DNA from: a bacterium
Lineage (GTDB): Bacteria > SZUA-182 > DTGQ01
Direction: 5' to 3'
DNA: 64,000 bases
Assembly (NCBI GenBank): GCA_023512255.1
Contig: JAILZY010000003.1
Coordinates: 29,400 to 93,399 of the forward strand
The notes below the pieces were generated by a model that was not told the DNA's origin, searched no databases, and worked only from the letters and a program-made list of their open reading frames with translations. The translations under genes and the position numbers were made by a program. Below are positions 11,748 to 62,918 of this stretch, in pieces (position 1 is the first letter of the stretch; each line of letters opens with the position of its first letter).

Positions 11748-12428
11748 TCAGTCGCCAAAATAGCGGTCTGCCTGCTCGGTGATCTGATTCAGCCGAGCTT
11801 CCAGGAGCTTGCGCTTTTCTTCGATGGCCAGACGATCCTCATCTGCACCAACCCATATCGGATCACCGAAGATAAATACCCCTCTAGCAAAGGGATAGGG
11901 AATGAAAAACCGGTCCCAGGTTGATAAAAATTTTCCTCGGCACGCACTGAAAGCCACCGGCACAAGGGGACAGCCGCTCAGGCGGGCCAGGAGGATGGCT
12001 CCGCTTTTGGCCTGCTGCCGTGGTCCCCTCGGTCCATCGGGAGCAATAGCCGCCTGAGAGCCTCTCTTTAGCTCTCTGGCAAGCTCCCGCAGGGCAGCTA
12101 CCCCGTGCTGGCTGCTTGATCCCCGGACCGAATAATAGCCAAAATAGCGGATAATCCGACTGATCAGCTCTCCATCTCCATGCTGGCTGATCATCACTAC
12201 TGCCCTTCGGCCAAGGCAGACCAGGGGCATCATCAGCAGCCGTCCATGCCAGAAGACATAGATGACTGCACCTCCCCTAGACCATAAATCATCGACCTTT
12301 TCCCTTCCGATCCACACCTTGCGCAGCGTCAGCCCTAAAACCCTAATCAGCCAAGCCCCAAGCCAGGGAAAAAGCTCAAGATTGAGCAGCCTTTTTTTCC
12401 ATTTTTTCCGAATCGTCTTCCAGCTCAC
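11748..12428 (-). CDS. DUF374/lysophospholipid-acyltransferase-like protein (lipid A operon member)
   Basis: Carries the VFWHGRLLMMP and IAPDGPRGPR motifs. It is translationally coupled (4-nt overlap) to lpxB. Confidence 0.7.
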   Translation of the reverse strand: MSWKTIRKKWKKRLLNLELFPWLGAWLIRVLGLTLRKVWIGREKVDDLWSRGGAVIYVFWHGRLLMMPLVCLGRRAVVMISQHGDGELISRIIRYFGYYSVRGSSSQHGVAALRELARELKRGSQAAIAPDGPRGPRQQAKSGAILLARLSGCPLVPVAFSACRGKFLSTWDRFFIPYPFARGVFIFGDPIWVGADEDRLAIEEKRKLLEARLNQITEQADRYFGD

Positions 12429-13774
12429 CGCTCAAGCATCTCCATAACCACCTCAGCGGCCCGAGCAGCGCTTCCCGGCTCACCCAGTCGGTCCCTGATC
12501 TTTCGCAGCTCCCGGCGCATGTGCTCACGCCGCTTTTGATCCTGCAAAATCTCCATAGCCAGAGAGGCGATTTTGTCTGCGTTAGCCTGATATTGAATCA
12601 ACTCAGGAACGATTTTCTTCTCAGCCACCAGGTTGACCAGCCCGATATAAGGGACCCGAATCAGCATTCTCCCCAGGATATAGCTTAGCAGGGAGAGCCT
12701 ATAGACCAGAATCATTGGGGTATTTAAAAGAGCGGTCTCCAGGGTAGCTGTGCCTGAGCTGACCAGGGCCAGATCAGCTACCCGGAGAATATCGTAGGTG
12801 CAGCTCTCTCGGCAGTGAATGGTAACTGATGGATATCGACGAAGATAGGGCTCGACTACAGAGGGTTTGATCGTGGAAGCTAGGGCCAGCAGAAACTGAA
12901 GATCAGGTTTTTGCCTGATGAGCTTTTCGGCTGCTCCCAGCAGTTGAGGTAAAATCCGTGAGATCTCACTTTTTCGACTGCCCGGCAAAAGGGCAATGAT
13001 CGGCCTTTTCGGATCAACGCCCAGACGGCGGCAAATCTCTTCCCGCATACTCGCAGACTCTGCCGGCTGTCTGCGGCTGTCTGACTGAGGCGACTCAGCC
13101 GACTGTGGCTCTTTTGGCTCTGCTCCTCTCCCTGGGGCTAACGCCAAGGGGTAGGGATTAATGCTCTCCATGCTAGGCTCTATCTCTCTTGGCTCTATCT
13201 CTCTCCCTGGGGCTATCTCTCCCCCGATCACATCCATCAGCGGATGGCCGATGAACCGCACATCCAGGCCGCATCCCTGGTATAGTGGAAGCTCAAAGGG
13301 AAAGATCACCAGCAGGGTATCCACAGTGCGAGCAATGGTCTTTATCCGCCATCTTCGCCAGGCCCACACCTGCGGACTTATATAGTAGAGCACCTTGATA
13401 TGCTCACGTCTAGCCACCTTAGCCAGACGGAGATTGAAATCAGGATAGTCGATCAGAATCAAAAGATCAGGCCGCTTGGTTCGAATGAATTGACACAGAG
13501 AGCGAAAGGTCTGCCGGATGGCCCGCCAATGGAGCATAACCTCGCCAATGCCAACCACAGCCAGATCATCAATGCGGCGGAGCAGCCGCACTCCCACCTC
13601 CTGCATCCTGCTGCCGCCGATGCCAAAAAGCTGCGCTGCCGGGAGCCGCTCCAGGATCTGCCTGGCCAGATTGGCCGCGTGCAAGTCACCGGAAGCCTCA
13701 CCGGCTACCATGAGAATCACTGCTGACGATGAGGTAGAACGCTCTTCTATAGCCACTCCTCCAGGCTTTGGCAA
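12425..13774 (-). CDS. lpxB: Lipid-A-disaccharide synthase LpxB, with a ~70-aa low-complexity insertion
   Basis: The N-terminal motif [15 protein letters not shown] is the LpxB signature. The insertion contains [10 protein letters not shown], encoded by tandem ctctatctctc repeats around 13150-13230. An alternative start is at 13711. Confidence 0.85.
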
Positions 13775-16848: not shown

Positions 16849-18144
16849 CTATTTCGCCAACCGAGCGAATACCGTATGGGCTGCGGCTAAAGTTCGTTCG
16901 ATATCTTCATCTGAATGGGCCAGAGAAACAAAAACCGCTTCAAACTGTGATGGCGGCAGATAGATCCCCTCTTCCAGCATCCCCTGAAAATAGCGGGCAA
17001 ACATCTCCTGATTAGACCGAAGGGCAGAGGCATAGTCGGTAACCTGCTCTTTGGTAAAAAAGAGAGTAAAGATCGAGCCTGCCCGATTCATCGACACCTC
17101 AAGCCCAAAAGCCCTGGCCGAGGCCAGAAGCCCATTAGCCAGCCGCTCTGCTCTTTCCTCAAGTTGCCGGTAAACTTCCGGTGAGGACAGAAGCTTCAAG
17201 GTGGCTAAGCCAGCGGCCATAGCCAGGGGATTCCCGGACAAGGTCCCGGCCTGATAGATCGGCCCCAATGGAGCCAAAAATTGCATGATCTCTTTCTTGC
17301 CGCCAAAGGCACCTACTGGCAAGCCGCCGCCGATGATTTTCCCCAGACAGGTGAGGTCTGGTTTGATATGGTACAGCTCCTGGGCTCCTCCCTGACTCAA
17401 CCTAAAGCCACTTATAACCTCATCAAAGATCAGGACAATATCATGCCTTTCAGTCAACTCCCGCAGGTCTTCAAGAAATCCCTTGCGGGGAAGAATCACG
17501 CCCATGTTTCCAGGCACAGGCTCTACAATGATACAGGCAATATCTCGGCGAAAGTCCTGAAGAACACGGCTTACCTGATCAATATCGTTAAATGGCAAGG
17601 CAATCGTCTGATGAGCCAAACTGGTAGGAATACCACCACTAGTGGGGACCCCCAGGGTTGTCGCTCCCGAGCCAGCCTTAACCAGCAAGCTGTCTACATG
17701 GCCATGATAGCACCCTTCAAACTTGATAATCTTATCACGGCCCTTATATCCTCTGGCCAGGCGAATGGCGCTCATGACCGCCTCGGTTCCAGAGTTAACC
17801 ATCCTGACCTGCTCGATTGATGGAAACCTCTGGCAGATGAGCTGAGCCAGCTCAACTTCCAGGCTGGTCGAAGCCCCAAAGCTCAACCCATTTTCCGCCG
17901 CAGCCTGAATCGCCCGCACCACCTCCGGATGAGCATGCCCCAGGATCATCGGCCCCCAGGAGCCTACATAGTCAATGTATTCATTGCCATCAACATCGTA
18001 AATCTTTGATCCACTAGCCCGGTCGATAAACAGAGGATTTCCCCCTACTGCCTTGAAAGCTCGAACAGGACTATTGACCCCGCCCGGGATGTGCTTCTGG
18101 GCTTTTTCAAACCAATACTTTGATTTTTCTGTAACTTTTCCCAT
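16849..18144 (-). CDS. hemL: Glutamate-1-semialdehyde 2,1-aminomutase HemL
   Basis: Has the [10 protein letters not shown] motif and a PLP-lysine region. The start is set at MGKVTEK; the ORF track extends it to 18180. Confidence 0.9.
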
Positions 18145-18399
18145 AAAGATTCTCCTTCGAGAAGGAGAAGGGAGCAGCAAGCCTTTTATTATTTCCCCTC
18201 TCTTATCTTGTCTTGAGTGATGAAATTATAGGCTATCATATTCATTCTTCTCTCAGCTTGTCAACCTATTTTTTTCGGACTATTTTTTGGCCAAAGTTTT
18301 ATAAGCCAAAATAATATCTTGGCTCAAAGTTTAAAATCTTGCCGGCAAGAGATTTTTTGACAATATCCGATCAAATTGGATATGATTCCACCACTAGTA

Positions 18400-23933: not shown

Positions 23934-25694
23934 ATGAAAATCATGCTCATTACCCTTCCTTTTTTTAATCCTGCCGAGCCGCCCGGCCAGCTTGCCTTAC
24001 TCAAGTCGCTGTGGCAGCAGGAGCAGCCAGAATGTACGGTCATAGCCTTTGATGCCAATATTGATTTTCTAAACTATGTCCTGCGCGGCGACTATCTCAG
24101 GGAGCGGCTGGCTGCCTTCACCGCCACAAAGCCGTCTGCCCGCCAGCTAACACGGGCCAGGCGGGCCTGCTTGCAAATTGAGCGGGCTCAGGCCGCACTC
24201 GGCTCAGCCGAAGGATATCGCTCACTCGGTCGCTATCTTGCCTTTGTTAACTGCCTGAACGATGCCCTAAGGCTAGTGTTTGCTACGCATCCTGAGCTGG
24301 CAATCTCGTTGACTAACTTCCGGCTGCTTCCCTTTGCGGCAGTGGATCTAGCCAATAACCTGCGCTTTGCTAGCCAAAGCCCCTACCCTCCCTTTGATGA
24401 CTGGTGCGCCGGCCAACTTTTCCCCAAGATCGAGCAGCATCGGCCTGAGATCATAGCCTTCTCCCTGACCTATCTCTCCCAGCTCTTTCCCACGCTCTTG
24501 GTAGCGGCAAGGCTCAAAGCCCGCTTTCCCAAAATTGTGCGAATCATTGGCGGCGGACTGATCAACTGCTACCGTAGCCGGCCACGGCAGAGCCTGGCAC
24601 TGCTTGGCGCACTCTTTGACTGGATTATCTTTGGCCGGGCAAAAGAGCTCGGCTCTGCTATTCCCTGGTCTTGGCTCCTTAGACCGCAAAAAACCGCGGC
24701 CAAAATGAACCCTTTTCTTGAAACCTCAGACCTTATGCCCGATCTTCCTGCCCCTGACTATGGAGATTTTGATTTATCCAGCTATTTTTCTCCGCTTCCT
24801 ACTCTGCCCTATGCCACCAGTCTTGGTTGCTACTGGAGCCGGTGCGCCTTCTGCCCTGATGCGGGTCGAAGCCCCCATATCAGCGGCAGCAGGGAGCTTG
24901 CCCGCAACCTGAAAAAAACCCTGCTCAGCCACCCAGGAGCGCTTTTTCACTTCACTGATCCGGCTGTTCCGCCGACCAATATGGAAATTATCGCTGATGT
25001 TTTTGCCGGGCAAGGTGCGTCCTATTATTCCTTTGTCCGCTTTGAGAGCTGCTTTGAGGATGCTGCACTCGTCAGGCGACTTTCCTCCTCAGGATGCAGG
25101 ATGCTACAATTTGGCTTAGAAAGCGCCTCAGAGCGGCTGCTATCCTTGAGCCAAAAAGGGATCGATCTTAGACGAGCTGAGAGGATTCTGGCGCTTTCAG
25201 CTCAAGAAAAAATCCTAAACTATGTCTACCTTCTCTTTGGCCTGCCTTCGGAAACCGAACAGGACCGAAACCAAAGTCTCGAATTTATTATCAGAAATCA
25301 TCACACTGTTCATTTCATAAACCCCAGCCTGATGAATTTACCAATCGGAAGCCCTATGGAAAGAGAGCCAGAGCGGTTTTTCATTGACTGGACCTATGAA
25401 TTAGCCACTGAATTAGCCACGGCCAGCGGCAGCAGTGGTCTGGCCGATGAAGATGATGGGGAAGATCAGGGAGGAAAATCGCAGGCTGGCCCTAATCAGG
25501 AGGCTGAAAGAGCAGGCTCCCCCTTTAGCCTGTATAAGGGGTTTATCTCTCAAGGAGAAAATACCCGAGTATCGGCCCGGCGTTTTCTTGAGAAGGTGTT
25601 TTTCCCTCATCCCCTGGTGGCTTCAATCATGAGGCATGATCCGCCCTTCTTTCGGGCAGCTCATGCTCTTTTCTTTGGTCCCTTAAAGTGGTAA
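23934..25694 (+). CDS. B12-binding-domain radical SAM protein
   Basis: Has an N-terminal B12-binding-like domain, the Cys motif CYWSRCAFCPD and the radical-SAM elp3 signature LLFGLPSETEQD. 586 aa. Confidence 0.7.
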   Translation: MKIMLITLPFFNPAEPPGQLALLKSLWQQEQPECTVIAFDANIDFLNYVLRGDYLRERLAAFTATKPSARQLTRARRACLQIERAQAALGSAEGYRSLGRYLAFVNCLNDALRLVFATHPELAISLTNFRLLPFAAVDLANNLRFASQSPYPPFDDWCAGQLFPKIEQHRPEIIAFSLTYLSQLFPTLLVAARLKARFPKIVRIIGGGLINCYRSRPRQSLALLGALFDWIIFGRAKELGSAIPWSWLLRPQKTAAKMNPFLETSDLMPDLPAPDYGDFDLSSYFSPLPTLPYATSLGCYWSRCAFCPDAGRSPHISGSRELARNLKKTLLSHPGALFHFTDPAVPPTNMEIIADVFAGQGASYYSFVRFESCFEDAALVRRLSSSGCRMLQFGLESASERLLSLSQKGIDLRRAERILALSAQEKILNYVYLLFGLPSETEQDRNQSLEFIIRNHHTVHFINPSLMNLPIGSPMEREPERFFIDWTYELATELATASGSSGLADEDDGEDQGGKSQAGPNQEAERAGSPFSLYKGFISQGENTRVSARRFLEKVFFPHPLVASIMRHDPPFFRAAHALFFGPLKW

Positions 25695-31052: not shown

Positions 31053-33818
31053 TCAATTTTTACTGCATAGCATCTTCTGGCAATGCCAAGATGTGCCATC
31101 CCATCTGGCAGTATAGAGAATCCAGTCATCGGCGCTGTCTACTCTTCCGTCTTGATCCTGAGCCCAAACCACCAAAGGTTTTCGATCCACGGTATAGGTA
31201 AGCACAGGGGATTCAGCCCAAGCAGCCCTGGAAATGATTCTGGGTGAAGACCACTGGCTGCCATTCCACAGTGAGCCGAAGACACAGAAGCCCTTGCCTG
31301 AGCGGTTGATCCACACAGCCGCTATCTCACCATTAGGACCTGCGGCCAGAGCAACCTCCTCATTAATGCCGGAAAGTTCAGCCACAGGAGCAGGTTCTGT
31401 CCACTCTCCCTCTATCCGCTGAGAATACAAAAGATTCGATTTACTCAAGGCCTGAGCAATCTCTTCAACTGAAGAGCGCTCATAATCAAGGCCGTCATTT
31501 GAGGAACTTGACCAGACAGCCATAGGGTTTCCAAAACTGTCAAAGACCAGGGCCGGATGGTGATGGAATTCAACCTCACGGGTTATCTCAACTGGGGTCA
31601 GCCAGCCAGCCTCAGCATTATAGGTGGCGGCATAAATTTTACTGCCAAGGCTTGAGGCAGCTAATGCTTTGGCCCAGACGACCATGACCTCTCCCGACTG
31701 GCTCCTGGCCAAAGCAGGAAGCCCATCATTGTAGATATCAGATGAGATATCCCCTAGCACGCTTTTCCCTTCATACACAGCACCACATCCTACCAGAGGC
31801 TCCTTGACCAGCTCAAGCATCTCATCTACCATAGTCTTCCCATCAGCCATGATCTGAGTTATGGTCTTGGTCAGACTATCTTTCCTCGATTGCACTGCCA
31901 AGGATTTGGGAGACAGGTTTGTTCTTTTTAAATTTTTAAAGTATGAAGAATTAGGATCAGCCCACCATCTGCTGCCTCTTGGGTAGTGCTGCCGTCGGGC
32001 TGTCCGACTTCCACCAGGCGAGGCATTTGGATCTTGCCATCTGCCGCTCAGCTCTTCCAGGGTATAAGACTTATTGAATCTTCCCACCAGGCCAGCCCAA
32101 TCTCTGCCAAATCTGACTGCTCCGCTCAGACTAAGACTTGGTATCCAGTCAACCGAGTAACCTTGAGCCGAAAAGCTATGGTTTATTGAGTAGCTGCCTG
32201 CCAGAAGAATAAACCCTTGAAATCTATCCTCCAAAGCATTGAAAACCTCTTGCGGCCCCAGGCCGACGACAAACTGGGTTACAGACTCCCGAGGCTTCTC
32301 AAGGCTCTTTGGCCTTCTGATATAGTTATAGGCTATACCTGCTGCCCCGGCTATGCCTACCCTGACGGTAGCAAGCCTGTCCCCACAGACAATCAAAGGG
32401 TGAGGGTGAGAGAGGCAAAGAAAGGTATCACTTCCACCCCAGGCAGCGATCGTCTGCTGAACCTCCCCCAAAGAAGCATGATCAGTGCTTATGGCCGCCT
32501 GATTGGAGGAAAAGAGGTTAAAACCCAAAGAAAGATGAGGGCCTAAAGTTAGTTCAGCCGTCAACTCACCAAGAGCATGGGGAGTCAAAATAGGCGAAGG
32601 ATCACGAGGAGTAAGACCCAAATCGCCGCAAAGAAAACTCGATACTTTCACATCAACGCTATTTCCCAAAACAGGGATAGCTGGCGGCAGATTGATGGTG
32701 AAGCTACTCAGAGCGATTTCCACACATCCCAAAGGGGCATAAGGGGAAATAGGCCCGACGAGATCAAGGGGATCTTCGGCCATCTGCCCTACCCAATTTG
32801 AGGGTGGCTCATCCAAAGCTGCCTCATCAGCTTTGGATCGGGCATCTTCAGACCGAGGAGCGGCCTTGCCCACGCGGTGGGCATCGACAGCTTCGGTCAA
32901 ATGGGAGCCCTGAGGAGGAGCCTGCTCACGGCTGGCTGAGGCTTGCGCCAAAACCAGAAGGTGATTTTCGGCGACCTGGCGGGCTGCCGCAGCCTGAGCC
33001 CCAGTAGCTGATGCTGCTTCTAAGACCGGCAGTCGGCCTGATAAAGGGGCTATCGCCTGTCCCCTATCTCCATCTCCATTCAGAGGCAGACTGCTGCCCG
33101 AGCCAATTACCTGATAGTAGAGGTCGGCATCATCCTCAAAAGATGCCCGCTGGAGCCAGAGCACAAGAGGATGGCCGCCTTGGTCTGTGGTCAGAGCGAT
33201 GCCGTAGTCATCATGGCTATCGCTGGTCAAATCTTGTGGCCTGCTCCAGCTTATCCCCCCATCCTCAGTAAGAGTGCCTTCTGAGCTGATGATTTTTTTA
33301 GGAGCAGTAAGGGATTCCCAGGCACAAAAAAGACTCGCTGATCTCTTTTGATCAGCCGATGTGTTCTGGTCCGCAGACTCACTCCCCTTCATGGACTGCA
33401 ACAGGCAGAGCAAAATCGGGCGATTTCCCCCATCCCCTGGTATTTTCCCGCTCCTGGCCCACTTTCCCTGCCGGTTGATTGCCCAAAAGAGTTCATTACC
33501 ATGCTCCCAAACCAAATATATATTGCCTTGGCCATCATTGGCCAGCGAGGGGTTATGATCTGGTACCTTATTCTGCCTTTCACCTGAGAGGCTCTTTTTT
33601 CTGAGATTTGAAACAGGTGCGGATAGCCGAAAAATCTCTTTTGTCTTTTTACCGCAAGATTCTCCTTCGCTAAATTCTGCCCCACCGCTTGCTCCTGTTC
33701 GCCCTAAGGCCCTTCTTCTTCCCCCTATTGCCTTGGCTGGAGTTGGCCGGCTTAAGAGCATGGTAAGGGCTAAGATAATGAAAATAAAACTTTTTCTCTT
33801 CAGGTTGTTAAGACACAT
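31053..33818 (-). CDS. Large secreted hypothetical protein (921 aa) with repeated ...AVW...W.G..WS.P beta-propeller/BNR-like units
   Basis: Has a signal peptide and repeated motifs: LVLWLQ, AVWSSSSNDG and AAVWINRSGKG...WNGSQWSSP. Confidence 0.6.
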   Translation of the reverse strand: MCLNNLKRKSFIFIILALTMLLSRPTPAKAIGGRRRALGRTGASGGAEFSEGESCGKKTKEIFRLSAPVSNLRKKSLSGERQNKVPDHNPSLANDGQGNIYLVWEHGNELFWAINRQGKWARSGKIPGDGGNRPILLCLLQSMKGSESADQNTSADQKRSASLFCAWESLTAPKKIISSEGTLTEDGGISWSRPQDLTSDSHDDYGIALTTDQGGHPLVLWLQRASFEDDADLYYQVIGSGSSLPLNGDGDRGQAIAPLSGRLPVLEAASATGAQAAAARQVAENHLLVLAQASASREQAPPQGSHLTEAVDAHRVGKAAPRSEDARSKADEAALDEPPSNWVGQMAEDPLDLVGPISPYAPLGCVEIALSSFTINLPPAIPVLGNSVDVKVSSFLCGDLGLTPRDPSPILTPHALGELTAELTLGPHLSLGFNLFSSNQAAISTDHASLGEVQQTIAAWGGSDTFLCLSHPHPLIVCGDRLATVRVGIAGAAGIAYNYIRRPKSLEKPRESVTQFVVGLGPQEVFNALEDRFQGFILLAGSYSINHSFSAQGYSVDWIPSLSLSGAVRFGRDWAGLVGRFNKSYTLEELSGRWQDPNASPGGSRTARRQHYPRGSRWWADPNSSYFKNLKRTNLSPKSLAVQSRKDSLTKTITQIMADGKTMVDEMLELVKEPLVGCGAVYEGKSVLGDISSDIYNDGLPALARSQSGEVMVVWAKALAASSLGSKIYAATYNAEAGWLTPVEITREVEFHHHPALVFDSFGNPMAVWSSSSNDGLDYERSSVEEIAQALSKSNLLYSQRIEGEWTEPAPVAELSGINEEVALAAGPNGEIAAVWINRSGKGFCVFGSLWNGSQWSSPRIISRAAWAESPVLTYTVDRKPLVVWAQDQDGRVDSADDWILYTARWDGTSWHCQKMLCSKN

Positions 33819-52219: not shown

Positions 52220-52930
52220 ATGGAATTAAAGAGGGAGTTTTTTCCAAAGGTTAAAAAAACGGTCATGCCGAGACCAGAGGTCAGGCCGCAGACCGATGTC
52301 CTGGGGATATCAGGAACAGTTCGGGCTTCTGAGGCTACTATTTATGGCCCCAACTGGTATCATGATCCCGAACAGGATCTGATTGAAATTTGGGATGCTG
52401 GCCCAGCACTTTGTTTTCGGGATGTTCTGCCGAAAAAGGACAAATACGCCAAGGAAAATCTCTACCTTAAGCTTTCTCTTGCCTACCGGACTACGGAAAA
52501 TGCCTTTGTCAACATCCGCACCTTTTCTGGTAATCATGTTACCCTGCCAAACGCTGTGCATGGGGCTATGTATGAGGATCCATACACCTTTTACTGGGTT
52601 ACCGATGATTGCACTATTAACATTAATTCTATCTATCGCGATGAACGGATATGGATCCAGCGGGTCGATTGGGAATGGGTTAGTCGGGAAATTATTTACG
52701 ATGATGAGCTTTCGTATAAAGACCCCTATCTTTATCGGACTAAGGAAGAGGTGGATGCCCTGTATGTCCCCAAGCCGATCAATGATGATTTGGTCAAGGA
52801 ATTTCTGATAAAGAAGATAAAAGAGGATCATACCTTTGCCAAACGCTGTATGCTCTTGCTCAATGGAGATGCCCTGCTGCAGAATGATCTAGTTACTCTT
52901 TATCAGAATCTTGGCCTTCATTCAGATTGA
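52220..52930 (+). CDS. Hypothetical protein (236 aa)
   Basis: A long ORF in a plausible coding context; no recognised motif. Confidence 0.5.
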   Translation: MELKREFFPKVKKTVMPRPEVRPQTDVLGISGTVRASEATIYGPNWYHDPEQDLIEIWDAGPALCFRDVLPKKDKYAKENLYLKLSLAYRTTENAFVNIRTFSGNHVTLPNAVHGAMYEDPYTFYWVTDDCTININSIYRDERIWIQRVDWEWVSREIIYDDELSYKDPYLYRTKEEVDALYVPKPINDDLVKEFLIKKIKEDHTFAKRCMLLLNGDALLQNDLVTLYQNLGLHSD

Positions 52931-54948: not shown

Positions 54949-55060
54949 ATTCTGCTGTTTTTTGGGAAACAAAAAACCGGAAGGAGAGCTTTTTGTTCAT
55001 CCTTCCGGTTTTTAAGGTGCATCAGAACTGAATCTACATCAGAACTGAATCATAACTGAA

Positions 55061-55771
55061 TCAGACAATGATCGGGACGGGATTGGCCAGTGATAAGCCA
55101 ACGGTACCGGTGTCGACTCTCAGATACAGAGGATCATGAATGGTATAGGTTCCGGTAATAAAGCTTGGAGAGGTGAGGGTACAGCTATAATCCACGGTAT
55201 AGGTAACCAGTTTAGCCAGGTCAAAATACGTGCCGGTCAGGGTGAATCCGGTAGCGCTGTTTAGGCCGGAGACACTGATCGGGACTGGAACAAGCTTGTT
55301 TAGGAGAAGCCCAGCGGTTCCAGATATGGTTAGCGTGCCTGGAGTATAGAGGAGCTGAAAATCAGCCGTCCCGCTGTTTAGGGTAACATAGCTTACCCAG
55401 GTACCGCTCCAGCTTCCAGTGGGGTTTGGCAAAGGAGGAATTATAGTTGTGGTTGTTAGCGGTGCCTGAGCCTGGCGGATCATCTGTCCTGAATCTATGC
55501 CTGGGGCAAGTCCATACAAGCCAGCCAGGCCGTATAAGCCCCCTAGGCCGTATAAGCCGGCCAGACCGCCGTAGAGGCCATATGGACTGAATGCACCACC
55601 ATATAAACCATAGCCTACTACCCCATATCCGTAATATGGGCTTGCTAAGCCAAATCCGCTAATACCTGCAAGCCCCCCACCGTAATACGCCGGGGCATTT
55701 TGGCTAATAGCCATAGACACTGCTAAAAGGAGAAAAAACATAAAAATTACTTTTGCTCTCACGAACCTCAT
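55061..55771 (-). CDS. Secreted Gly/Tyr-rich protein, paralog 1 (GLYG repeats + conserved ~115-aa C-terminal domain)
   Basis: Signal peptide, then a (G)GLYG/YGL low-complexity region, then LPNPTGSWSGTWVSY...SGTAGLLLNKLVPVPISVSGLN. It is homologous to the next gene. The start is at MRFVRAKV, after a gggagg RBS. Confidence 0.65.
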   Translation of the reverse strand: MRFVRAKVIFMFFLLLAVSMAISQNAPAYYGGGLAGISGFGLASPYYGYGVVGYGLYGGAFSPYGLYGGLAGLYGLGGLYGLAGLYGLAPGIDSGQMIRQAQAPLTTTTIIPPLPNPTGSWSGTWVSYVTLNSGTADFQLLYTPGTLTISGTAGLLLNKLVPVPISVSGLNSATGFTLTGTYFDLAKLVTYTVDYSCTLTSPSFITGTYTIHDPLYLRVDTGTVGLSLANPVPIIV

Positions 55772-55939
55772 AGTACATACCTCCCTTTTCCAAAACATCC
55801 CACAAACTAGAAGGAGGAGCAGGGAGCGAGGTTTATCACATCGCTTAAAGCCCCCAACCTTCGCCAAGAAAACAGCAGCTTAGGGTGAATTTATCTTCAC
55901 CTTACCCTTGTTTTAAAAGGGTAGCTTCTGGCCTTAGTC

Positions 55940-56872
55940 TCAGATGACCAGGCTTAAATTAAACTCACCCGCATCACTCTTGAGATATAGGGCATCATGG
56001 ATTAAATACGTTCCGGCGAGAAAAGATGGAGAAACCAAAGTGCAGGCATACTCAGCGTAGTAAGTTACCAGGCTAGTGGGGTCAAGATAGCTGCCGCTTA
56101 GAGTGAAGCCAGTCGCCGTGTTCAATCCAGAGACCGTAATGGGTAACGGTATCAGCTTGTTCAGCAAAAGCCCTGCGGTTCCAGAAACAGTTAGAGTCAA
56201 GGGGTTATAGGTAAGATTGAAATTGGCAATACCCCCTTTTAGGGTAATGTAGCTCAGCCAGGTGCCGCTCCAGGTACCGGTGGGATTTGGCAATGCCGGG
56301 ACAGCGGACACAGAGCTGGTAGAAGTCGAGGTTGTAGGCAGGGTCAGCCCCGAGCTGAGAAGTACTTGGGCTTCTCTGGACAGCGGATTAATACCTTCAC
56401 CTAAACCATATCTACCCAGCAGGCCGCCGTAGAGGCCGCCGTATAGACCACCGTAGAGACCATACAGGCTGCTCCCATAAAGACCATACAACCCGCCATA
56501 TAAGCTACTACCATAGAGGCCGCCATATAAACCATACAATCCGCCATATAGGCCGAGACTGCCGCCATATAGACCTAGCCCACCATACCCACCATACAGG
56601 CCACCGTACCCGCCATACAGGCCACCATACCCGCCATACAGGCCACCATATAGACCGCCGTATAGACCACCATAGAGACCGTACAACCCACCGTACAGCC
56701 CACTGCTGTAGTATACAGTTCCCAGGCTGGATCCGCTGCCTGTGATGCTACCGATGCCATAACCATATAGGCCGCCGCCATAGTAGCCTTGCGCACCTGT
56801 ACCATATAAAGCTAATGATATAACTAATGCCAGAAATACTGCCCAACGTGCTTTCTCTCTCAAAAGCCTCAT
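55940..56872 (-). CDS. Secreted Gly/Tyr-rich protein, paralog 2
   Basis: Long GGLYGGLYGGYGGLYG repeats. The C-terminal domain, LPNPTGTWSGTWLSY...SGTAGLLLNKLIPLPITVSGLN, is about 60 % identical to paralog 1. Confidence 0.65.
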   Translation of the reverse strand: MRLLREKARWAVFLALVISLALYGTGAQGYYGGGLYGYGIGSITGSGSSLGTVYYSSGLYGGLYGLYGGLYGGLYGGLYGGYGGLYGGYGGLYGGYGGLGLYGGSLGLYGGLYGLYGGLYGSSLYGGLYGLYGSSLYGLYGGLYGGLYGGLLGRYGLGEGINPLSREAQVLLSSGLTLPTTSTSTSSVSAVPALPNPTGTWSGTWLSYITLKGGIANFNLTYNPLTLTVSGTAGLLLNKLIPLPITVSGLNTATGFTLSGSYLDPTSLVTYYAEYACTLVSPSFLAGTYLIHDALYLKSDAGEFNLSLVI

Positions 56873-57804
56873 GCCCAAATTACTCCCTTCATTTTTGAAT
56901 ACGAAAAATACGCTCATACTTCAAGTTTCACTTTGAATCTCACAATTTCTCACCGTAATCTTCTCTACAATACGATTTCGCTCTCACCTCCTTCAGGTTT
57001 TTTCAAATGGGGTAATATTGGCCTTGAGCAGATCGCGGATCATAGATTGGTTTTATGGTCAATATACCCACTTCTAGCGGTCATATCCCATTAACCTGAA
57101 AATGATCAAGATGGGGAAACCAGAGGTCAACTAGGTCGAAGAATCAACTAGGTCAAACAAGAATGCAACCCGCGACGATCGGAAGGATTAACCGCAATTT
57201 CATAAATATCATACATTCATACATAATAAGCACATTCATACATAATAAGCAATTCATAAGCAATCACCACCACCAGGGGAAGTAACCAGTAAGTGCCCGA
57301 CCATCAAGGTTTATAACTTGACATAATGACGTAGCCCTGGACAAGTGAAATAATTATCCTGGCCAGGATGTTATAACCATTGATGTTATAACCAGTAATG
57401 GTTGGTCGCTTATGTGGTGTAAAACTTAATAAAAAAATTAAAGACTACGGTTTACCTCTCCCTGCTGATTGATTAAGAGTTTAGCGTTTATCTAAAAAAA
57501 CGACGCTGCAAGGTTAAAAAACCTTACGCTCTCTGTTTGTACTTTTTAGAGAAGGGATGATACAATTATTTAATGTCAGGAGATGATAGTAGGGTGTCAG
57601 GATATGATGATATTATTATATCCTGACATTATGATATAATATTTATTAATATTATAATTATAATATATTGATGTAATAATATCGCTAAATGGTTGATATG
57701 TTCAGAGTAATGTTGTCAACCTGATACCATTAAACTTCGCGGGGGCTGATCGGATGATCCCCAATCAAGCCCCCACTGAAACCCTAAGCTTAAACCCTAA
57801 ACGC

Positions 57805-60800
57805 CTACTTTACGGTTGACTGCTTAACCGATTGCATCGCCGGCTGCACAGTCTGCTGAGCTGGCTGCTGCTGGGCTAGCTGGGCTGGCTGAGCTGGAAC
57901 GGTGCTTGTCTGCTGGGTTGATTGGGCCACTGGCTGTTGCACGGGCTGCTGGGCCGGCTGTTCTAGCTGCTGCTGTCCAGGCTGCTGGATCGCCGGCTGC
58001 ACGGTTTGTTGAGCTGGCTGGGCTGGCTGAGCTGGCTGCTGCGCTTGCTGAGCTGGCTGCTGCGCTGGCTGGGCTGACTGCTGGGTTGATTGCTTTATCG
58101 GAGGATTAATCGGCGACTGCCCTGGCGGCGGAACAGGAGTGCGGGGTGGGGGAAGTACCCGATAGATGTAGTCAGCGCCAAAGAATTTGCAACTTATCCC
58201 CCGGTACTTGAATAAGCCATTCACTTCAAAATAGTCATCAATAGGAACCTCAGTAACCTTAGACCGGTTGAATCTGCAGATAGAGGTGTGCTCTACCCAA
58301 TCGTGGTTAATCTGATCTGCCACCGCTCCATCGGCAACTGCCTCATATATAGTTAGAGCATCATAAGGAGAGGGAAAGTGGATAAAAGCGACAAAAGTAG
58401 TTGCCCCTATTTTTTGAATCTCATCCTTGATCACTAGTTGATCTCCAGTCAGTCTAAGAACTACCTCAAACTGCACCGAGGCTGACCCCACATTGCCGCA
58501 CTCATCCGTGGCAACTACCGTGATTGTATTTTGTCCGACTAGCTCAGCCATATTGAGTGAAATTGGAGGGTGGGGACTAAGATAAATCGGTGCAGCCCCA
58601 TTATTGGAAAGCTTGACCACAACTTCTGGATCGGGGTCACAGTTATCAATCACAGTGTAATCGAGAGCGACTATGTCAGTGGTGAAATATTTCACTGCTA
58701 ACGGCTTGATAGTGACAGATGGACTTTCCTCATCAAGGACAGTTACCTTGAAGCTGCAAGTGGCTGTATTTCCATAACTATCCGTAGCTGTATAGGTTAC
58801 CAGGGTTCCTTGAGCACTGTCTTTGCATTCTGCAGGGAAGAAATCACCAGGCTTATGGGTGCTTTCTACGGTTACCGGACCACAATTGTCGCTAAAGACC
58901 GGTGGGGTCCAGGAAACCTTTGCACCGCATACCCCAGGCTCATTTCTGACGGTTATGTCAGTCGGACACCCGTTGATAATCATAGGCCCTATGGTATCCG
59001 AAACCGTTACTGTGAAACTACACTCTTGCTTATTCCCACAGTCATCTGTAGCTGTGTAGATAACTTTCGTCGTGCCGATGGGGAAAAAATCACCCGGCTC
59101 ATGGTTACTGGTTACGGTTACCGAGCCGCAATTGTCCCTAAAGGTTTGGGGAATCCAGAAAACTTTTGCCCCGCAGGCTTCAGGATCAGCACTTACAGTT
59201 ATATCATCCGGACAGCCGCTGACCATAGGCGCTTCCTTATCGAGCACTATAACTCTGAAGCTACAGCTTGCTTCATTCCCATACTCATCTCTGGCCGTGT
59301 AGGTAACTATGGTTCCTTTGGCCTCACTTTCGCATTCTGCGGGGAAGAAATCACCAGGATTATGGGTGCTGGTTACGGTTACCGGACCGCAATCGCCAAC
59401 AAAGGTTGGTGGGATCCAAAATACCTTTGCCCCGCACTCTCCAGCCTGGTTATTTACCGTGATGTCAGGCGGACAGGGTTCGATCGGCGTAATTAGACCA
59501 ATTCCTCCCCCTTCAACCGTTATATTAAATTCGCAAGGGGCGGCCTCATTGCCAGAGCTATCCTTGGCTGTGTAGATAACTTTAGTTGTTCCAACTGGAA
59601 AGGAGTCCCCAGGGACTACATTCTCCCGCTTTGTGCCGTCAGGATATATAGCAATGCTTGTTACGATTACCTGACAATTGTCCTTAAAGACAGGCGGAGT
59701 CCAGCTTACTGGAGACTCTTTTCCGCATATGCCACTTACATTGATATTACCTGGACAGTCGCTGATAAGTATAGGAGCAATTTTGTCCACCACCGTTACT
59801 GTAGCTGTGCAGGTGCTCTGATTGCCGCTGGTGTCAATGACGGTCAGGGTAACCAGATTGGGGCCAATATTGTCGCAGGTGAAGGTATCTGGGAAGACCT
59901 CCATTTTGGCAATGCCGCAATTGTCGGCTGAGCCATTATCTACATCCTGGGGGTTGATAGAGACCTGGCCGCTGGCATCAAGCTGCACGGTGATGTTCTT
60001 ACACCTGGCCTCAGGGGGAATGGGATCCACTACCGTTACTGTAGCTGTGCAGGTGCTCTGATTGCCGCTGGTATCAGTTACGGTCAGGATAACCAGATTG
60101 GGGCCAATATTGTCGCAGGTGAAGGTATCAGGGAAGACCTCCATTTTGGCAATACCGCAATTATCAGATGAGCCATTATCTACATCCTGGGGGTTGATTA
60201 TAGCCTTGCCGCTGGCATCAAGCTGCACGGTGATATCCTTGGCTATGCACAGGGATAGTTCGCTGTCTTTGACTGTAACAGTAAAGGTACAGCTTATCGG
60301 AATTCCGCAATTATCCACCGCTTCATAGGTAACTTCCGTTGTCCCAACCTCAAAGAAACTGCCAGGGTTATGGGTGCTAGTTACCTTCAGGCTGCAATCA
60401 TCGACAAATTTTGGTGGAGTCCAATCAACCCGCGCTCCACACTTTCCTGGTTCATTATCTTGGGGTGGGATGTTGGTCGGGCAATATTCAATGGATGGGC
60501 CATCGTTTACGATCGGTAGGGTAAAGGTGCACTCGGCGACGATTCCATCTACATCCTGAGCCGTGTAAGTAACTATAGGCCCTGTAGCACCACATTCTAT
60601 GGGAAATAGATCACCAGGCTTATGATTACTAATTACCGTCACCGGACCGCAGACACCAAAGTCTGGCTCAGGCCAGAATACTTGTGCCTTGCACTCTTCA
60701 GTAATCTTATTGATGGTGATATCAGATGGAGTTGGACAGTAGGGCAGGCAGCAGATGCGCCGCTCATCAGCTACGGTCGTGGGCGGAGTCTGATCAGAAG

Positions 60801-62175
60801 TGATGGTGGCGAAGTTGGTGATGTACTCCATTTGGGGAAGAGCAGGGTTTACCAGGACCGTCACTTGAACGCAACGCGGGGGGGACCCGCCCGGCAAATC
60901 GCCGAGATGCCAAGTTACAGTATTAGTTGCAGGATCATAGACTCCGCCATCAGTTGCTGAGATAAAACTTACTTTGCTGGGATCTGGCAAGTTATCGACA
61001 ATTTTTATATTGGTAACGTCAAAGTCTTTTTTCTCCTCACTTCCATAGCAGATCGAATAAGTCATCTCTTCCCCTGCGTTCACACATTCTGACTCAGGAA
61101 TTTTAAGATTAAGTGGATTATAGCTGATATTTCCAATACTCAAAGCGGCTGGATTTCCAATTATACCTGTATTGTGTACTAGAGTGAATGGAATGTCAGG
61201 AGCGGGAGGATTGGCCGGATTCGGATCCCAGATAGTTAAGTCATCACCAGTGCATCCCCCAGTAACATATAGATAGCCTGTAATCTCATCCACTCCAAGA
61301 CCCATACCGCCATGATCCAAGCCGACTTTTCTCATATCCATTATCGTTTCTGATCCAGTGGTTATATCATACTTACTTATTATAGTGAAGCCATCGCGGC
61401 CAAAGAGATTTCTTAATCCAAAGCAACACTCCTCCTTAGCTAAGTCAGGGGCTGTCGTATAGATAATTTTTCTTCTCCTGTCAACTGCAATACCGCAGGG
61501 GACAATACTTGGTTTATAACTTAAGACCTCATTCCAGGTATTGGTGTCAAATCCTTTGACCATTTTGCCTTTGGAATCTGCTACATAGAGCACTCCCTCT
61601 CTCTCATCAAGGGCAATGCCAAACATACCAGAAACTCCAGCCAGAGCTTTGGGATAGCCAGCTCTCAGTCTCATAGCTCGAGCATCCACAATAACATTAT
61701 CAGGATCTTGCGCATTGATATAATTAGGATCCCAGTCATAGACATAAATGTCTGGGGTATTCCTTTTTACAATGTAGACGATATTATTCTTATCATCTAC
61801 ATCAATTCCAGCCAGATTGCGAACCGGCTTGCCAGAGGCGTCAAGCACTACCACCTTTCCCAAGGATCTCATACTAACCGCATTTACCAGTTCGATGGCA
61901 GGATCATTACCCGGTACATTAAATTCATCCGTTATAAACAGGGTGGCTGAATCTGCATCAACTCCCATCCCGGAAGGTTCTTGAACAAATGATAAATTAT
62001 AGGTAGCCTGATAGGTTACTGTTCCATCAGGGTTAATATTCCAAGCATCAAACTGGTTTATATGATGGTTAGCTAACATATACAGTGACTTTGCCGAACC
62101 GGCTGCTGGTATGACTAAAGCAATCAGCAGCACTGCCCAGAGAGAAAAAAATTTTTTTAAGCTACGGTACCTCAT
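57805..62175 (-). CDS. Giant secreted adhesin-like protein (1456 aa): N-terminal beta-propeller-like region, at least 8 HYR/Ig-like repeats, C-terminal Pro/Gln/Ala-rich tail
   Basis: Signal peptide. Repeated ~80-aa units CP.DITV...CGAKV.W.PP.F.DNCG.VTV.S.H.PGDFFP.G.T.V.Y.A.D..GN...C.F.V.V.D are HYR-like. Duplicated ITVQLDASG..INPQDVDNGS.DNCGIAKMEVFPDTFTCDNIGPN units. Tail QPAQQPAQQAQQPAQPAQ. Confidence 0.8.
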   Translation of the reverse strand: MRYRSLKKFFSLWAVLLIALVIPAAGSAKSLYMLANHHINQFDAWNINPDGTVTYQATYNLSFVQEPSGMGVDADSATLFITDEFNVPGNDPAIELVNAVSMRSLGKVVVLDASGKPVRNLAGIDVDDKNNIVYIVKRNTPDIYVYDWDPNYINAQDPDNVIVDARAMRLRAGYPKALAGVSGMFGIALDEREGVLYVADSKGKMVKGFDTNTWNEVLSYKPSIVPCGIAVDRRRKIIYTTAPDLAKEECCFGLRNLFGRDGFTIISKYDITTGSETIMDMRKVGLDHGGMGLGVDEITGYLYVTGGCTGDDLTIWDPNPANPPAPDIPFTLVHNTGIIGNPAALSIGNISYNPLNLKIPESECVNAGEEMTYSICYGSEEKKDFDVTNIKIVDNLPDPSKVSFISATDGGVYDPATNTVTWHLGDLPGGSPPRCVQVTVLVNPALPQMEYITNFATITSDQTPPTTVADERRICCLPYCPTPSDITINKITEECKAQVFWPEPDFGVCGPVTVISNHKPGDLFPIECGATGPIVTYTAQDVDGIVAECTFTLPIVNDGPSIEYCPTNIPPQDNEPGKCGARVDWTPPKFVDDCSLKVTSTHNPGSFFEVGTTEVTYEAVDNCGIPISCTFTVTVKDSELSLCIAKDITVQLDASGKAIINPQDVDNGSSDNCGIAKMEVFPDTFTCDNIGPNLVILTVTDTSGNQSTCTATVTVVDPIPPEARCKNITVQLDASGQVSINPQDVDNGSADNCGIAKMEVFPDTFTCDNIGPNLVTLTVIDTSGNQSTCTATVTVVDKIAPILISDCPGNINVSGICGKESPVSWTPPVFKDNCQVIVTSIAIYPDGTKRENVVPGDSFPVGTTKVIYTAKDSSGNEAAPCEFNITVEGGGIGLITPIEPCPPDITVNNQAGECGAKVFWIPPTFVGDCGPVTVTSTHNPGDFFPAECESEAKGTIVTYTARDEYGNEASCSFRVIVLDKEAPMVSGCPDDITVSADPEACGAKVFWIPQTFRDNCGSVTVTSNHEPGDFFPIGTTKVIYTATDDCGNKQECSFTVTVSDTIGPMIINGCPTDITVRNEPGVCGAKVSWTPPVFSDNCGPVTVESTHKPGDFFPAECKDSAQGTLVTYTATDSYGNTATCSFKVTVLDEESPSVTIKPLAVKYFTTDIVALDYTVIDNCDPDPEVVVKLSNNGAAPIYLSPHPPISLNMAELVGQNTITVVATDECGNVGSASVQFEVVLRLTGDQLVIKDEIQKIGATTFVAFIHFPSPYDALTIYEAVADGAVADQINHDWVEHTSICRFNRSKVTEVPIDDYFEVNGLFKYRGISCKFFGADYIYRVLPPPRTPVPPPGQSPINPPIKQSTQQSAQPAQQPAQQAQQPAQPAQPAQQTVQPAIQQPGQQQLEQPAQQPVQQPVAQSTQQTSTVPAQPAQLAQQQPAQQTVQPAMQSVKQSTVK

Positions 62176-62918
62176 AGATTACATTTCCTCACCTTATAGT
62201 ACATTAGAGTACATTTAGTTTAATTTTCAATCATTTTCCCCCCTGTAAGCTGGTTGACAGATATAATATTTTACTTATCTATCTAGTTAGCAAATTAATT
62301 GAATTTAATTTAAAGCTTACAATTTACTTCACCTCCTTGAAGCCTTCTTCATCATGCCCATTGATTTCACTTATGATCAAGATAAAGATATATGATCAAA
62401 AGACAAGGAGATAAACCAAAGACTTCGGTTGCTCAAAGTTGCAATTGAAGCTATTGTAATTAATAATTTTTTATAATTAAAAAATAATAAGAGATATATA
62501 TAAATTTACCTTGCTACCGGACACATTTTATCTTCCGGTTTTGTATACGCCTGAAAGTGCAGGCATTTCGTGTCATTTTCGCGTGGGCGGGAATCCAGAG
62601 GGTTGCTGCAATTATACATGGATTATCACTTTCGCGGGCATAACGATAAAAAAGTGTCCGGTAGTGAAAAATTTACTTAATTTAATTTTAAATTAATTAA
62701 AATCATTTATCAAGTAAAAAAGATAAAAAATTTATATACAATAATTTTTGAATAAAATATAAAAATAAACAATAAATTAAAATTTTTGAGAAATTTTTTG
62801 ATGGGAAGTTTTTTGATAAGAGCAAAAAGCGTTTGAGCTTCGGGTCTTAGCTTTAGAAGATAGGAATTTTTTAGAAGATGATATGAATTTTTATGATCTT
62901 ATGAGGGGATAAGCTTCT

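Follow-up and report, generated by a model that had tools for sequence, protein, structure and literature searches.

What might an uncultured hot-spring bacterium do with a tandem pair of putatively exported proteins rich in glycine, tyrosine and leucine? The question is raised by two adjacent genes, which we call A and B, in a window of 64,000 nucleotides (nt) from contig JAILZY010000003.1 of the bacterial assembly GCA_023512255.1; 'the window' here means this whole stretch of DNA, and positions are counted from its first letter. Each protein combines a signal-peptide-like N-terminus, a low-complexity Gly/Tyr/Leu block and a C-terminal domain (coordinates in Table 1), and an initial annotation of the sequence had suggested a structural, adhesive or self-assembling family. 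We conclude that A and B are real genes under purifying selection and that their C-terminal domain is a previously undescribed family, absent from Pfam and NCBIfam, with a known type of fold. As to function, the sequences suggest that A and B may well be self-associating envelope or matrix proteins that carry this domain as a folded binding or anchoring head, a reading that we adopt tentatively and weigh below against its alternatives.

We begin with the genes themselves. Both open reading frames (ORFs) lie on the minus strand and are confirmed as the adjacent paralogues that the initial annotation had described. Gene A starts at an ATG just downstream of AAAAGGGAGG (its protein begins MRFVRAKV) and gene B at an ATG just downstream of GAAGGGAG (MRLLREK); independent gene calls in three near-identical strains (loci L017-L019) place both starts at the same residues, and the longer mechanical ORFs (TTG 55867, ATG 56917) were dropped in favor of them. 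Measured against orthologues, the ratio of nonsynonymous to synonymous substitution rates (dN/dS) stays at 0.04-0.09 over the C-terminal domain and reaches 0.10-0.22 over the region made up of signal peptide and repeats, with values of 0.04-0.14 for gene B. Protein length varies between strains (229 or 236 amino acids (aa) for A; 306, 310 or 312 aa for B), and every one of these differences, including a 7-aa difference in the A block relative to L017-L019, is in frame and falls within or at the border of the repeat/linker region, with none in the C-terminal domain. It is this combination of low dN/dS and in-frame-only indels outside the domain that identifies A and B as real, selected genes. 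Since the indels gather in the repeat region beside a near-invariant domain, the number of repeats must evolve quickly while their composition is maintained.

The full-length AlphaFold model of A divides the protein into a helix at residues 2-22, a barrel at residues 111-229 and, between them, residues 24-107 with a predicted local distance difference test score (pLDDT) of 32-49 and no secondary structure; on this model, the repeat block of A is predicted to be intrinsically disordered. A signal-peptide-like N-terminal helix is found in both proteins, in agreement with the signal peptides proposed from the sequence at the outset, and these N-termini point to export. Among Gly/Tyr-type family members with an intact N-terminus, all have a hydrophobic core, a small-x-small site and then YY or FY (for example APA, AQG or VQA, each followed by YYGG). 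Because this order recurs across members, the conserved YYGG is the predicted mature N-terminus.

The block that would follow is extreme in composition. In B its 137 aa are 41% Gly, 22% Tyr, 20% Leu and 9% Ser, with 21 LYG, 19 GLYG and 12 GGLYG motifs and only 3 charged residues, all near the C-terminal end of the block; the 67 aa of the A block (36% Gly, 18% Tyr, 16% Leu, 1 charged residue) are less regular. Gly, Tyr, Leu, Ala and Ser together make up 83-92% of both. The block is a single uninterrupted Gly/Tyr/Leu stretch without cationic residues, His or Ala-rich modules, and none of the other ORFs of the window has such a composition. Before the barrel, most family members carry a motif resembling R-x-[A/P]-Q-[V/A]-[L/P]-L. 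The encoding DNA had been called highly repetitive, which is only partly right: Tandem Repeats Finder detects imperfect tandem arrays in B (the best with period 21, 3.4 copies and score 128); it detects none in A, and the Gly, Tyr and Leu codons are mixed in both blocks. Repeat-encoding DNA of this kind also yields long ORFs that are spurious, whether in another frame or on the opposite strand. A 76-aa example lies inside gene B (56575-56805, minus strand), and a called 121-aa Gly/Val/Thr-rich 'gene' at another locus (L014:8253-8618, minus strand) appears to be antisense to an uncalled secreted ORF starting MKKKRLYGLGLL.

The C-terminal domains of A and B align without gaps at 79 of 118 identical positions (67%, E = 2e-54), and the consensus string of the initial annotation, which had described a conserved module of about 115 aa, matches them. 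To what known family does this domain belong? At E <= 10 neither Pfam nor NCBIfam yields a single family for A, B or the isolated domain, and that includes the profiles of curli (CsgA), Fap and S-layer proteins and the C-terminal sorting domains of type IX secretion (Por_Secre_tail / CTD). PHROGs and PADLOC, searched at E <= 0.1, are likewise silent for all three queries. When 38 family members are scanned against Pfam, only scattered sub-threshold noise appears, with no match to Avidin (PF01382) at E <= 1. A sequence search of the PDB with the family profile returned nothing beyond compositional matches to the membrane protein ND1, which we rejected, and a tblastn search of a plasmid collection with the barrel found nothing. 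The proposal of a novel family thus stands on the lack of any Pfam, NCBIfam or PDB sequence match, and a kinship with S-layer, curli-like or other described families, which had been named as the finding that would speak against it, did not appear in Pfam or NCBIfam.

The fold, in contrast to the sequence, has many relatives. Modeled from a 38-sequence family alignment (A2), the domain is predicted with pLDDT 94.9 and a predicted template modeling score of 0.86 as eight strands in simple up-and-down order. Its best fold matches are de novo designed soluble barrels (8ah9 with a score of 14.0, 6czj with 13.5), followed by the Cap15 barrel and the A domain of quinohemoprotein amine dehydrogenase (12.7 each), the avidins (11-12) and the C-terminal barrel of NHBA (11.0); small outer-membrane barrels (OmpW, OmpA, PagL, NspA) score 10.8-11.7. 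Foldseek against the PDB returns mainly avidins (E about 1e-3, 8-15% identity). The predicted likeness to avidin and streptavidin (PF01382) and to the wider calycin-type meander barrels, the de novo b10 and mFAP among them, lies in the eight-stranded antiparallel up-and-down barrel and is one of fold level only, because identity is 8-18% and hhalign gives the family profile a probability of 0.75% against streptavidin; the barrels of A and B differ further in being fused to low-complexity tails. The domain shares with the calycin superfamily (lipocalin, FABP, avidin) a meander barrel whose first strand carries G-x-W. Here it takes the form G-x-W-x-G-x-W at the start of strand 1, with G12 invariant, W14 present in >= 90% of sequences and W10 in most. 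The most conserved segment, GTAGLLLNKLIPxP, covers the loop between strands 3 and 4. Calycins have a conserved Arg or Lys near the last strand that packs against the conserved Trp; in the present family the residue just ahead of the last strand's conserved D-x-G differs among members (K, R, Q, E, S or T).

For each predicted strand we sorted the alternating residues into two faces and then measured both faces across the family. One face holds W/F/Y/L/I/V together with all of the invariant glycines (59% large hydrophobic residues) and is conserved, with an entropy of 1.0 bit; the other is rich in Thr and Ser, 12% charged and variable (2.34 bits). This is the reverse of what a lipid-facing surface would give, and the modeled barrel is therefore probably soluble, avidin/calycin-like and built around a hydrophobic core. 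The ends of the proteins argue the same way, because A and B finish in Val or Ile and some relatives continue past the barrel into a tail or repeat the barrel in tandem.

How widespread is the domain, and what accompanies it? A word-indexed search of 5.8 billion proteins recovers 16 members, and a profile search adds a few more. When 1.84 billion cluster representatives are scanned exhaustively with HMMER, 37 match, 2 of them spurious, hence about 35 clusters; the two spurious ones (P0035 and P0041) are giant repetitive proteins, rejected for their many weak partial matches, repeat-driven nonsense Pfam matches and lack of any significant stretch. Pattern scans, which reach close relatives only, find 3 loci in 185,579 species-representative genomes and 11 loci in 241 million metagenome records. 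The family is rare and confined to uncultured lineages. Where its members are named at all they are called 'hypothetical protein', and nearly all come from unclassified metagenome-assembled genomes (MAGs), with one locus labeled Anaerolineae and one Pseudomonadota.

Throughout this family the barrel is constant and the N-terminal part is not. The N-terminal part can be a GGLYG-type block, a Pro/Leu/Trp-rich module of the form QNW..PPYNTLWPLWSP (also given as QNW..LPPYNTLWPLWSP), a hydrophobic segment only or, in one protein, a second barrel in tandem; in some members a Pro/Thr(/Val)-rich tail of 60-130 aa follows the barrel and ends in hydrophobic or aromatic residues. Since the barrel is retained and only the N-terminal module is exchanged, the barrel looks like a constant functional head on variable low-complexity tails. 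In the same genomes, QNW modules and Gly/Tyr blocks are also found in proteins that have no barrel, so that low-complexity modules must be shuffled within a lineage-specific set of secreted proteins.

Two groups of relatives deserve a description of their own. The module AQ-QNW..LPPYNTLWPLWSPALSP, Pro/Leu/Trp-rich and about 170 aa long, stands alone near Gly/Tyr genes at L004:13809-14336, L015:11736-12254 and L024:7661-8188 (all minus strand), forms one protein with the barrel in P0043 and P0046, and has no Pfam match; its copies in L004 and L024 have the 10-mer AAGGAGGTGA, discussed below, upstream. The short members (L002:9686-10168, L003:643-1125, L001:748-1200; L009-L013) consist of a hydrophobic segment and the barrel, without a repeat block. 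One group of them sits within the nusA-infB operon, between ylxR/nusA and infB, and the other is flanked by genes for a Frankia_peptide (PF14407) and an M16 peptidase.

We now return to what A and B might do. In the reading that we favor, both proteins would be exported by Sec and lose their signal peptides, leaving mature chains that begin with YYGG. The disordered, charge-free Gly/Tyr/Leu block (67 aa in A, 137 aa in B) would then self-associate through many weak Tyr and Leu contacts spaced by Gly, following the same physics as the amorphous GGLY blocks of squid ring teeth and GLFG or YG hydrogels, and a Ser/Thr/Pro linker would join it to a soluble eight-stranded barrel whose core is hydrophobic and conserved and whose Thr/Ser surface is uncharged. 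As a folded head, the barrel would bind an envelope component or a partner, or would oligomerize, and in doing so turn the sticky tails into a network. Far upstream of B, a perfect Shine-Dalgarno element probably stabilizes the mRNA for high expression. Export, self-association, cellular location, the barrel's ligand and the role of the leader element are all things that we infer. We prefer this account because A and B combine a signal peptide, strong ribosome-binding sites plus the leader element, and a composition that is selected while length drifts, and because they are tandem paralogues with a constant folded head on swappable sticky tails.

Several observations weigh against it. A Sec signal alone, in a bacterium with two membranes (a diderm), delivers a protein to the periplasm only. 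An eight-stranded barrel is a generic fold and often a binder of small ligands, so the tail could be a mere tether, and disorder predicted by AlphaFold is no proof of self-association. Suckerins, the squid proteins to which the block is compared below, also need beta-sheet-forming Ala/His/Thr modules, which A and B do not have. Finally, the neighborhoods vary, and among them there is no conserved partner gene for an export pore, a polymerase or a cross-linking enzyme.

The closest parallel to the block comes from animals. A full-text literature search with LYGGLYGG and related strings leads to papers on squid ring teeth and suckerins, where the block YGYGGLYGGLYGGLGY is an amorphous, hydrogen-bonded segment behind cohesion and self-healing (PMC4555047). 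The idea that the repeats recall eukaryotic Gly/Tyr structural proteins thus finds an exact literature match in this block, which could be cut from protein B, and GGLYG/GGY strings are common to both. Suckerins are secreted structural proteins whose Gly/Tyr block is disordered and cohesive through Tyr hydrogen bonds. Their blocks, however, alternate with Ala/Val/Ser/His/Thr-rich beta-sheet modules and come without a globular domain, whereas A and B each have one continuous block and a barrel. The resemblance is almost certainly convergent, because suckerins are animal proteins and A and B are bacterial.

Other likenesses are looser. Nucleoporin GLFG domains form cohesive meshworks. They and the YG conduit of PEX13 (PMC12173945) resemble the A and B blocks in their dense G-L-aromatic-G or YG repeats, almost free of charge, but they are transport barriers of eukaryotes that face the cytosol, whereas the A/B block would sit outside the bacterial cytoplasm. 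The literature on Gly/Tyr-rich proteins, as far as the search covered it, describes eukaryotic systems only (hair keratin-associated proteins, mollusc shell matrix, tubeworm cement, the PEX13 YG domain), with no bacterial case.

Could the block instead be passive and the barrel the active part? In that case the barrel would bind a small hydrophobic molecule or a short peptide in the manner of an avidin or lipocalin, and the Gly/Tyr block would be a flexible spacer holding it in the periplasm or on the surface. The fold matches, mostly to ligand-binding barrels (avidins, Cap15, designed fluorogen binders), would suit such a carrier, as would the G-x-W of strand 1 and the most conserved segment, which includes the loop between strands 3 and 4, where avidin has its lid. 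Short members reduced to a hydrophobic segment and a barrel also fit, and so does the setting of one such group between Frankia_peptide and M16 peptidase genes. A passive spacer, however, is not expected to hold an extreme composition under selection (dN/dS 0.10-0.22) or to keep a conserved YYGG end, and the barrel has no sequence kinship with the avidins or any ligand-binding family in Pfam. We regard a tethered carrier as a serious but unlikely explanation.

A hint at high expression may come from the leader of gene B, which contains the 10-mer AAGGAGGTGA far from the actual ribosome-binding site. We take this 10-mer to be perfectly complementary to the conserved 16S rRNA 3' end. The window holds two exact copies where 0.2 are expected, one in the leader of B and one in that of the next gene upstream, which encodes a giant protein with HYR repeats. 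In five aligned leaders (the window, L017, L007 and L004 for B, and a paralogue in L006) the element is invariant amid divergent sequence, and the B leader of L024 has a version matching at 9 of 10 positions. Across 219 kb of fetched loci we count 12 occurrences, 9 of them independent. All nine are found 82-160 nt ahead of genes whose products carry a signal peptide, namely B orthologues, three further members of the barrel family, a QNW-module protein and the uncalled secreted ORF in L014. A further exact copy in L024 lies 172 nt upstream of another QNW-module gene. Hexamers resembling a -10 box occur 12-25 nt upstream of the element. A leader peptide was considered and rejected, as no conserved ORF or start codon follows. 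Gene A lacks the 10-mer and has only its own ribosome-binding site, preceded by a spacer that contains a hairpin. On this comparative evidence, AAGGAGGTGA is a candidate 5' stabilizer that would mark a set of highly expressed secreted or surface proteins.

There is a precedent for such an element. The stabilizing Shine-Dalgarno (STAB-SD) of cry3A in Bacillus thuringiensis is an untranslated Shine-Dalgarno near the 5' end of a transcript starting at -129, which binds 30S subunits and blocks 5' decay (PMC4113751). Like it, AAGGAGGTGA is Shine-Dalgarno-like, complementary to the 16S 3' end and far upstream (about 100-130 nt in cry3A, where it directs no translation, against -82 to -172 here). The difference is that STAB-SD elements have been described in Gram-positives with RNase J1, whereas the present host is a diderm and its element a candidate stabilizer.

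As for RNA structure, the B leader folds no better than shuffled sequences (z = -0.6), and the B-A spacer folds weakly better (z = -1.6); GC-rich hairpins like that of the spacer are also found in the A leaders of L023, L024 and L027. The hairpin 3' of A (Table 1) is not listed by the consensus scan, probably because its loop is 14 nt long. An Rfam scan of the window finds one tRNA only. The 930-nt spacer between the HYR gene and B is AT-rich and contains, read on the minus strand, a palindrome TGTCAGGATAT...ATATCCTGACA and a direct repeat of GCTTATTATGTATGAATGT (57595-57627, 57205-57262), and the upstream regions of B and the HYR gene have in common CTTGATCAT followed by AATGGG. The palindrome, the direct repeat and CTTGATCAT may be regulator sites.

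Table 1. Features of genes A and B and of their flanks, with positions in the window unless a locus is named.
Feature	Position	Strand	Description and basis
Gene B	55940..56872	-	310 aa; signal peptide, Gly/Tyr/Leu block predicted to be disordered, Ser/Thr linker, C-terminal barrel (predicted); ORF and ribosome-binding site
B signal peptide (predicted), aa 1-29 (MRLLREKARWAVFLALVISLALYGTGAQG, then YYGG)	56786..56872	-	Basic n-region, hydrophobic core and small-x-small site, from sequence
B low-complexity block, aa 30-166 (GGLYG/GLYG array)	56375..56785	-	Composition, motif counts, imperfect DNA repeats, in-frame strain length variation
B linker, aa 167-191	56300..56374	-	Completes the R-E-A-Q-V-L-L motif (Arg is aa 166), then a Ser/Thr/Pro-rich stretch
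B C-terminal eight-stranded barrel (predicted), aa 192-310	55943..56299	-	67% identical to the A domain; end-to-end family-profile match
Gene A	55061..55771	-	236 aa; same architecture as B with a shorter repeat block; ORF and ribosome-binding site
A signal peptide (predicted), aa 1-28 (…SQNAPA, then YYGG)	55688..55771	-	Predicted helix 2-22, block-mean pLDDT 82-91; AxA site from sequence
A low-complexity Gly/Tyr/Leu block, aa 29-95	55487..55687	-	Composition; pLDDT 32-40, no secondary structure
A barrel (predicted), aa 112-229, and tail NPVPIIV	55064..55438	-	
AAGGAGGTGA in the B 5' leader, candidate STAB-SD-type mRNA stabilizer	56984..56993	-	112 nt upstream of the start codon
AAGGAGGTGA, second copy	62329-62338	-	145 nt upstream of the start codon of the HYR giant
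AAGGAGGTGA, copies elsewhere	L004:8285, L004:14455(-), L006:8996, L007:8747, L014:8011, L015:8886, L016:5055, L024:8360(-)		
Hairpin in the B-A spacer, possible attenuator, terminator or processing site	55881..55904	-	Stem-loop scan; also in the fold
Hairpin CCGGAAGGA/TCCTTCCGG followed by T6, 3' of A, likely terminator shared with convergent glgB	54971..55008	-	From sequence

We next consider which neighboring genes travel with the pair. The B-A tandem is kept in at least five distinct lineages: the near-identical L017 (JGI 3300005573), L018 and L019 (both ENA), then L007 (GCA_040755755.1), L004 ('MAG299'), L024/L025 and L026. Wherever the flank was read, a convergent glgB lies 3' of the pair, and the conserved context amounts to B-A, the downstream glgB and a 236-aa protein only. 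The gene for this last protein (52220-52930, plus strand) stands beside glgB in every syntenic locus (L004, L007, L008, L017-L019) and its product has neither a signal peptide nor a Pfam match. Other family members occupy unrelated neighborhoods.

Upstream of B the picture changes from lineage to lineage. In the window the neighbor is the HYR giant (57805-62175, minus strand), with six HYR repeats and a Gln/Pro/Ala-rich C-terminal tail; its length of 1456 aa here, 1613 aa in L018 and 1964 aa in L017 indicates that repeat number varies within the population. In L004 the place is taken by an oxidoreductase and an acetyltransferase, and in L007 by an S8 protease and a thioredoxin. The initial annotation had joined the HYR giant with A and B into a dedicated surface system, which the comparison does not bear out: the adjacency is limited to near-identical strains and absent from L004 and L007, and we rejected the HYR gene as an operon partner on that ground and on that of the 930-nt spacer with its own hairpin. 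Because both leaders carry AAGGAGGTGA, a functional connection between the two genes, though a weak one, is still suggested. The S8 protease and thioredoxin recur beside a 426-aa Gly/Tyr paralogue in L006, and they too were rejected as partners, the thioredoxin being an ordinary cytoplasmic-type TrxA without a signal peptide and the protease being inverted between L006 and L007; that both are absent from the window and from L004 weakens their case further. Tyrosine cross-linking, also proposed at the outset, finds no support, with no peroxidase, tyrosinase, laccase or other oxidase gene near A and B and a gene content that suggests an anaerobe.

What kind of cell carries the locus? The window encodes LpxB (12425-13774, minus strand, above the curated cut-off), from which we conclude that the host has lipid A and is a diderm. 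PFOR, nitroreductases and sigma-54 regulators are encoded as well, and because of PFOR and the related gene content the host looks anaerobic. The closest relatives of its HemL (16849-18180, minus strand) are 74-98% identical and, where they carry a name (74-89% identity), come only from unclassified MAGs; after them identity falls to 67%, to a mixture of Desulfobacterales, Nitrospinae, Nitrospirae and others. JGI project Ga0078972, described as a Yellowstone metagenome (PMC8986864), is the source of the near-identical strain L017. Elsewhere in the window, three minus-strand genes (6351-8450, 8549-10099 and 31053-33818; 699, 516 and 921 aa) encode proteins with signal-peptide-like N-termini and no Pfam or NCBIfam match, and a plus-strand gene (23934-25694) encodes a B12-binding radical SAM protein that resembles the C-methyltransferases maturing ribosomally synthesized and post-translationally modified peptides, scoring well below the family cut-offs.

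A diderm host makes it natural to ask whether the barrel serves the traffic of the protein. An outer-membrane translocon might recognize it, as in the Slam-dependent lipoproteins of Neisseria, and deliver the low-complexity cargo to the surface; a constant C-terminal domain behind variable N-terminal modules is what such a sorting or translocation handle would look like, and NHBA and other Slam-dependent lipoproteins do have a soluble eight-stranded barrel at the C-terminus. NHBA, though, belongs to the lipoproteins, its disordered region is charged and rich in Arg, and its translocon is known, whereas A and B have no lipobox or any Cys before the barrel, an uncharged Gly/Tyr/Leu region and no detectable sequence similarity to it. 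No gene of the Slam/DUF560 type or for another translocon is present among the scanned ORFs of the window or the called genes of the other loci, and a PorV-like gene 35 kb away scores below its cut-off (58 vs 90 bits). Post-barrel Pro/Thr tails, tandem barrels and barrels without cargo also fit an obligatory C-terminal tag poorly, and we consider this explanation improbable.

Still less probable is a small outer-membrane barrel, a transmembrane domain like that of OmpX, OmpW or OmpA with the Gly/Tyr block as its periplasmic or surface extension. The domain has very few charged residues, its last strand alternates hydrophobics (F-N-L-S-L-V-I) and the host has lipopolysaccharide genes, all of which would suit such a protein. 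Yet the pattern of faces is opposite to that of a lipid-facing surface, the conserved face being the hydrophobic one with the invariant Gly; the C-termini (...NPVPIIV in A, ...NLSLVI in B) lack the usual aromatic residue; and long tails or second barrels follow in some members. Soluble barrels score 2-3 Z units higher, and the domain, with its roughly 115 aa, does not reach the length of natural eight-stranded outer-membrane proteins. A secreted glycine-rich antimicrobial or competition factor, comparable to arthropod Gly/Tyr-rich peptides or the glycine-rich unstructured domains of colicins, is very improbable, for although a GGLYG string also appears in a paper on crustacean glycine-rich antimicrobial peptides and tandem paralogues with rapid repeat-length variation would suit it, the repeat block lacks cationic residues, none of the adjacent genes is one for immunity, export or lysis, PADLOC and PHROG scans gave no match, and the synteny beside glgB is stable in all relatives.

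The preferred reading, of self-associating tails on a folded head, can be carried one step further, into a picture that we offer as speculative and rather unlikely as a whole. A and B would build an aromatic-glycine phase outside the cytoplasm, in the form of a GLYG hydrogel or solid that is cohesive and free of charge and comparable to squid ring teeth or to the nucleoporin GLFG and PEX13 YG meshworks. The barrels would be its nodes, possibly capturing the strictly conserved YYGG N-terminus of another molecule head to tail; membrane-anchored barrel-only paralogues would tether it, and a STAB-SD-like leader shared with other surface proteins of this hot-spring lineage would supply very high output. 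If true, this would be the first prokaryotic material of the aromatic-glycine kind, and a natural bacterial, possibly thermostable source of suckerin-like polymers.

Cohesive Gly/Tyr-rich proteins such as suckerins, hair keratin-associated proteins, mollusc shell matrix and the nucleoporin and PEX13 meshworks are, as far as our literature search covered them, known from eukaryotes only. The shared far-upstream Shine-Dalgarno hints at STAB-SD-like stabilization beyond Gram-positives. The locus would also supply native prokaryotic genes, from a lineage present in a Yellowstone metagenome, for suckerin-type biomaterials, now made from synthetic repeats in E. coli. In A and B a new domain family, whose fold is modeled with confidence, is coupled to a kind of repeat hitherto known only from eukaryotic materials; a bacterial, Sec-exported version of such a repeat, attached to an undescribed barrel, would add a building principle to bacterial envelopes or matrices.

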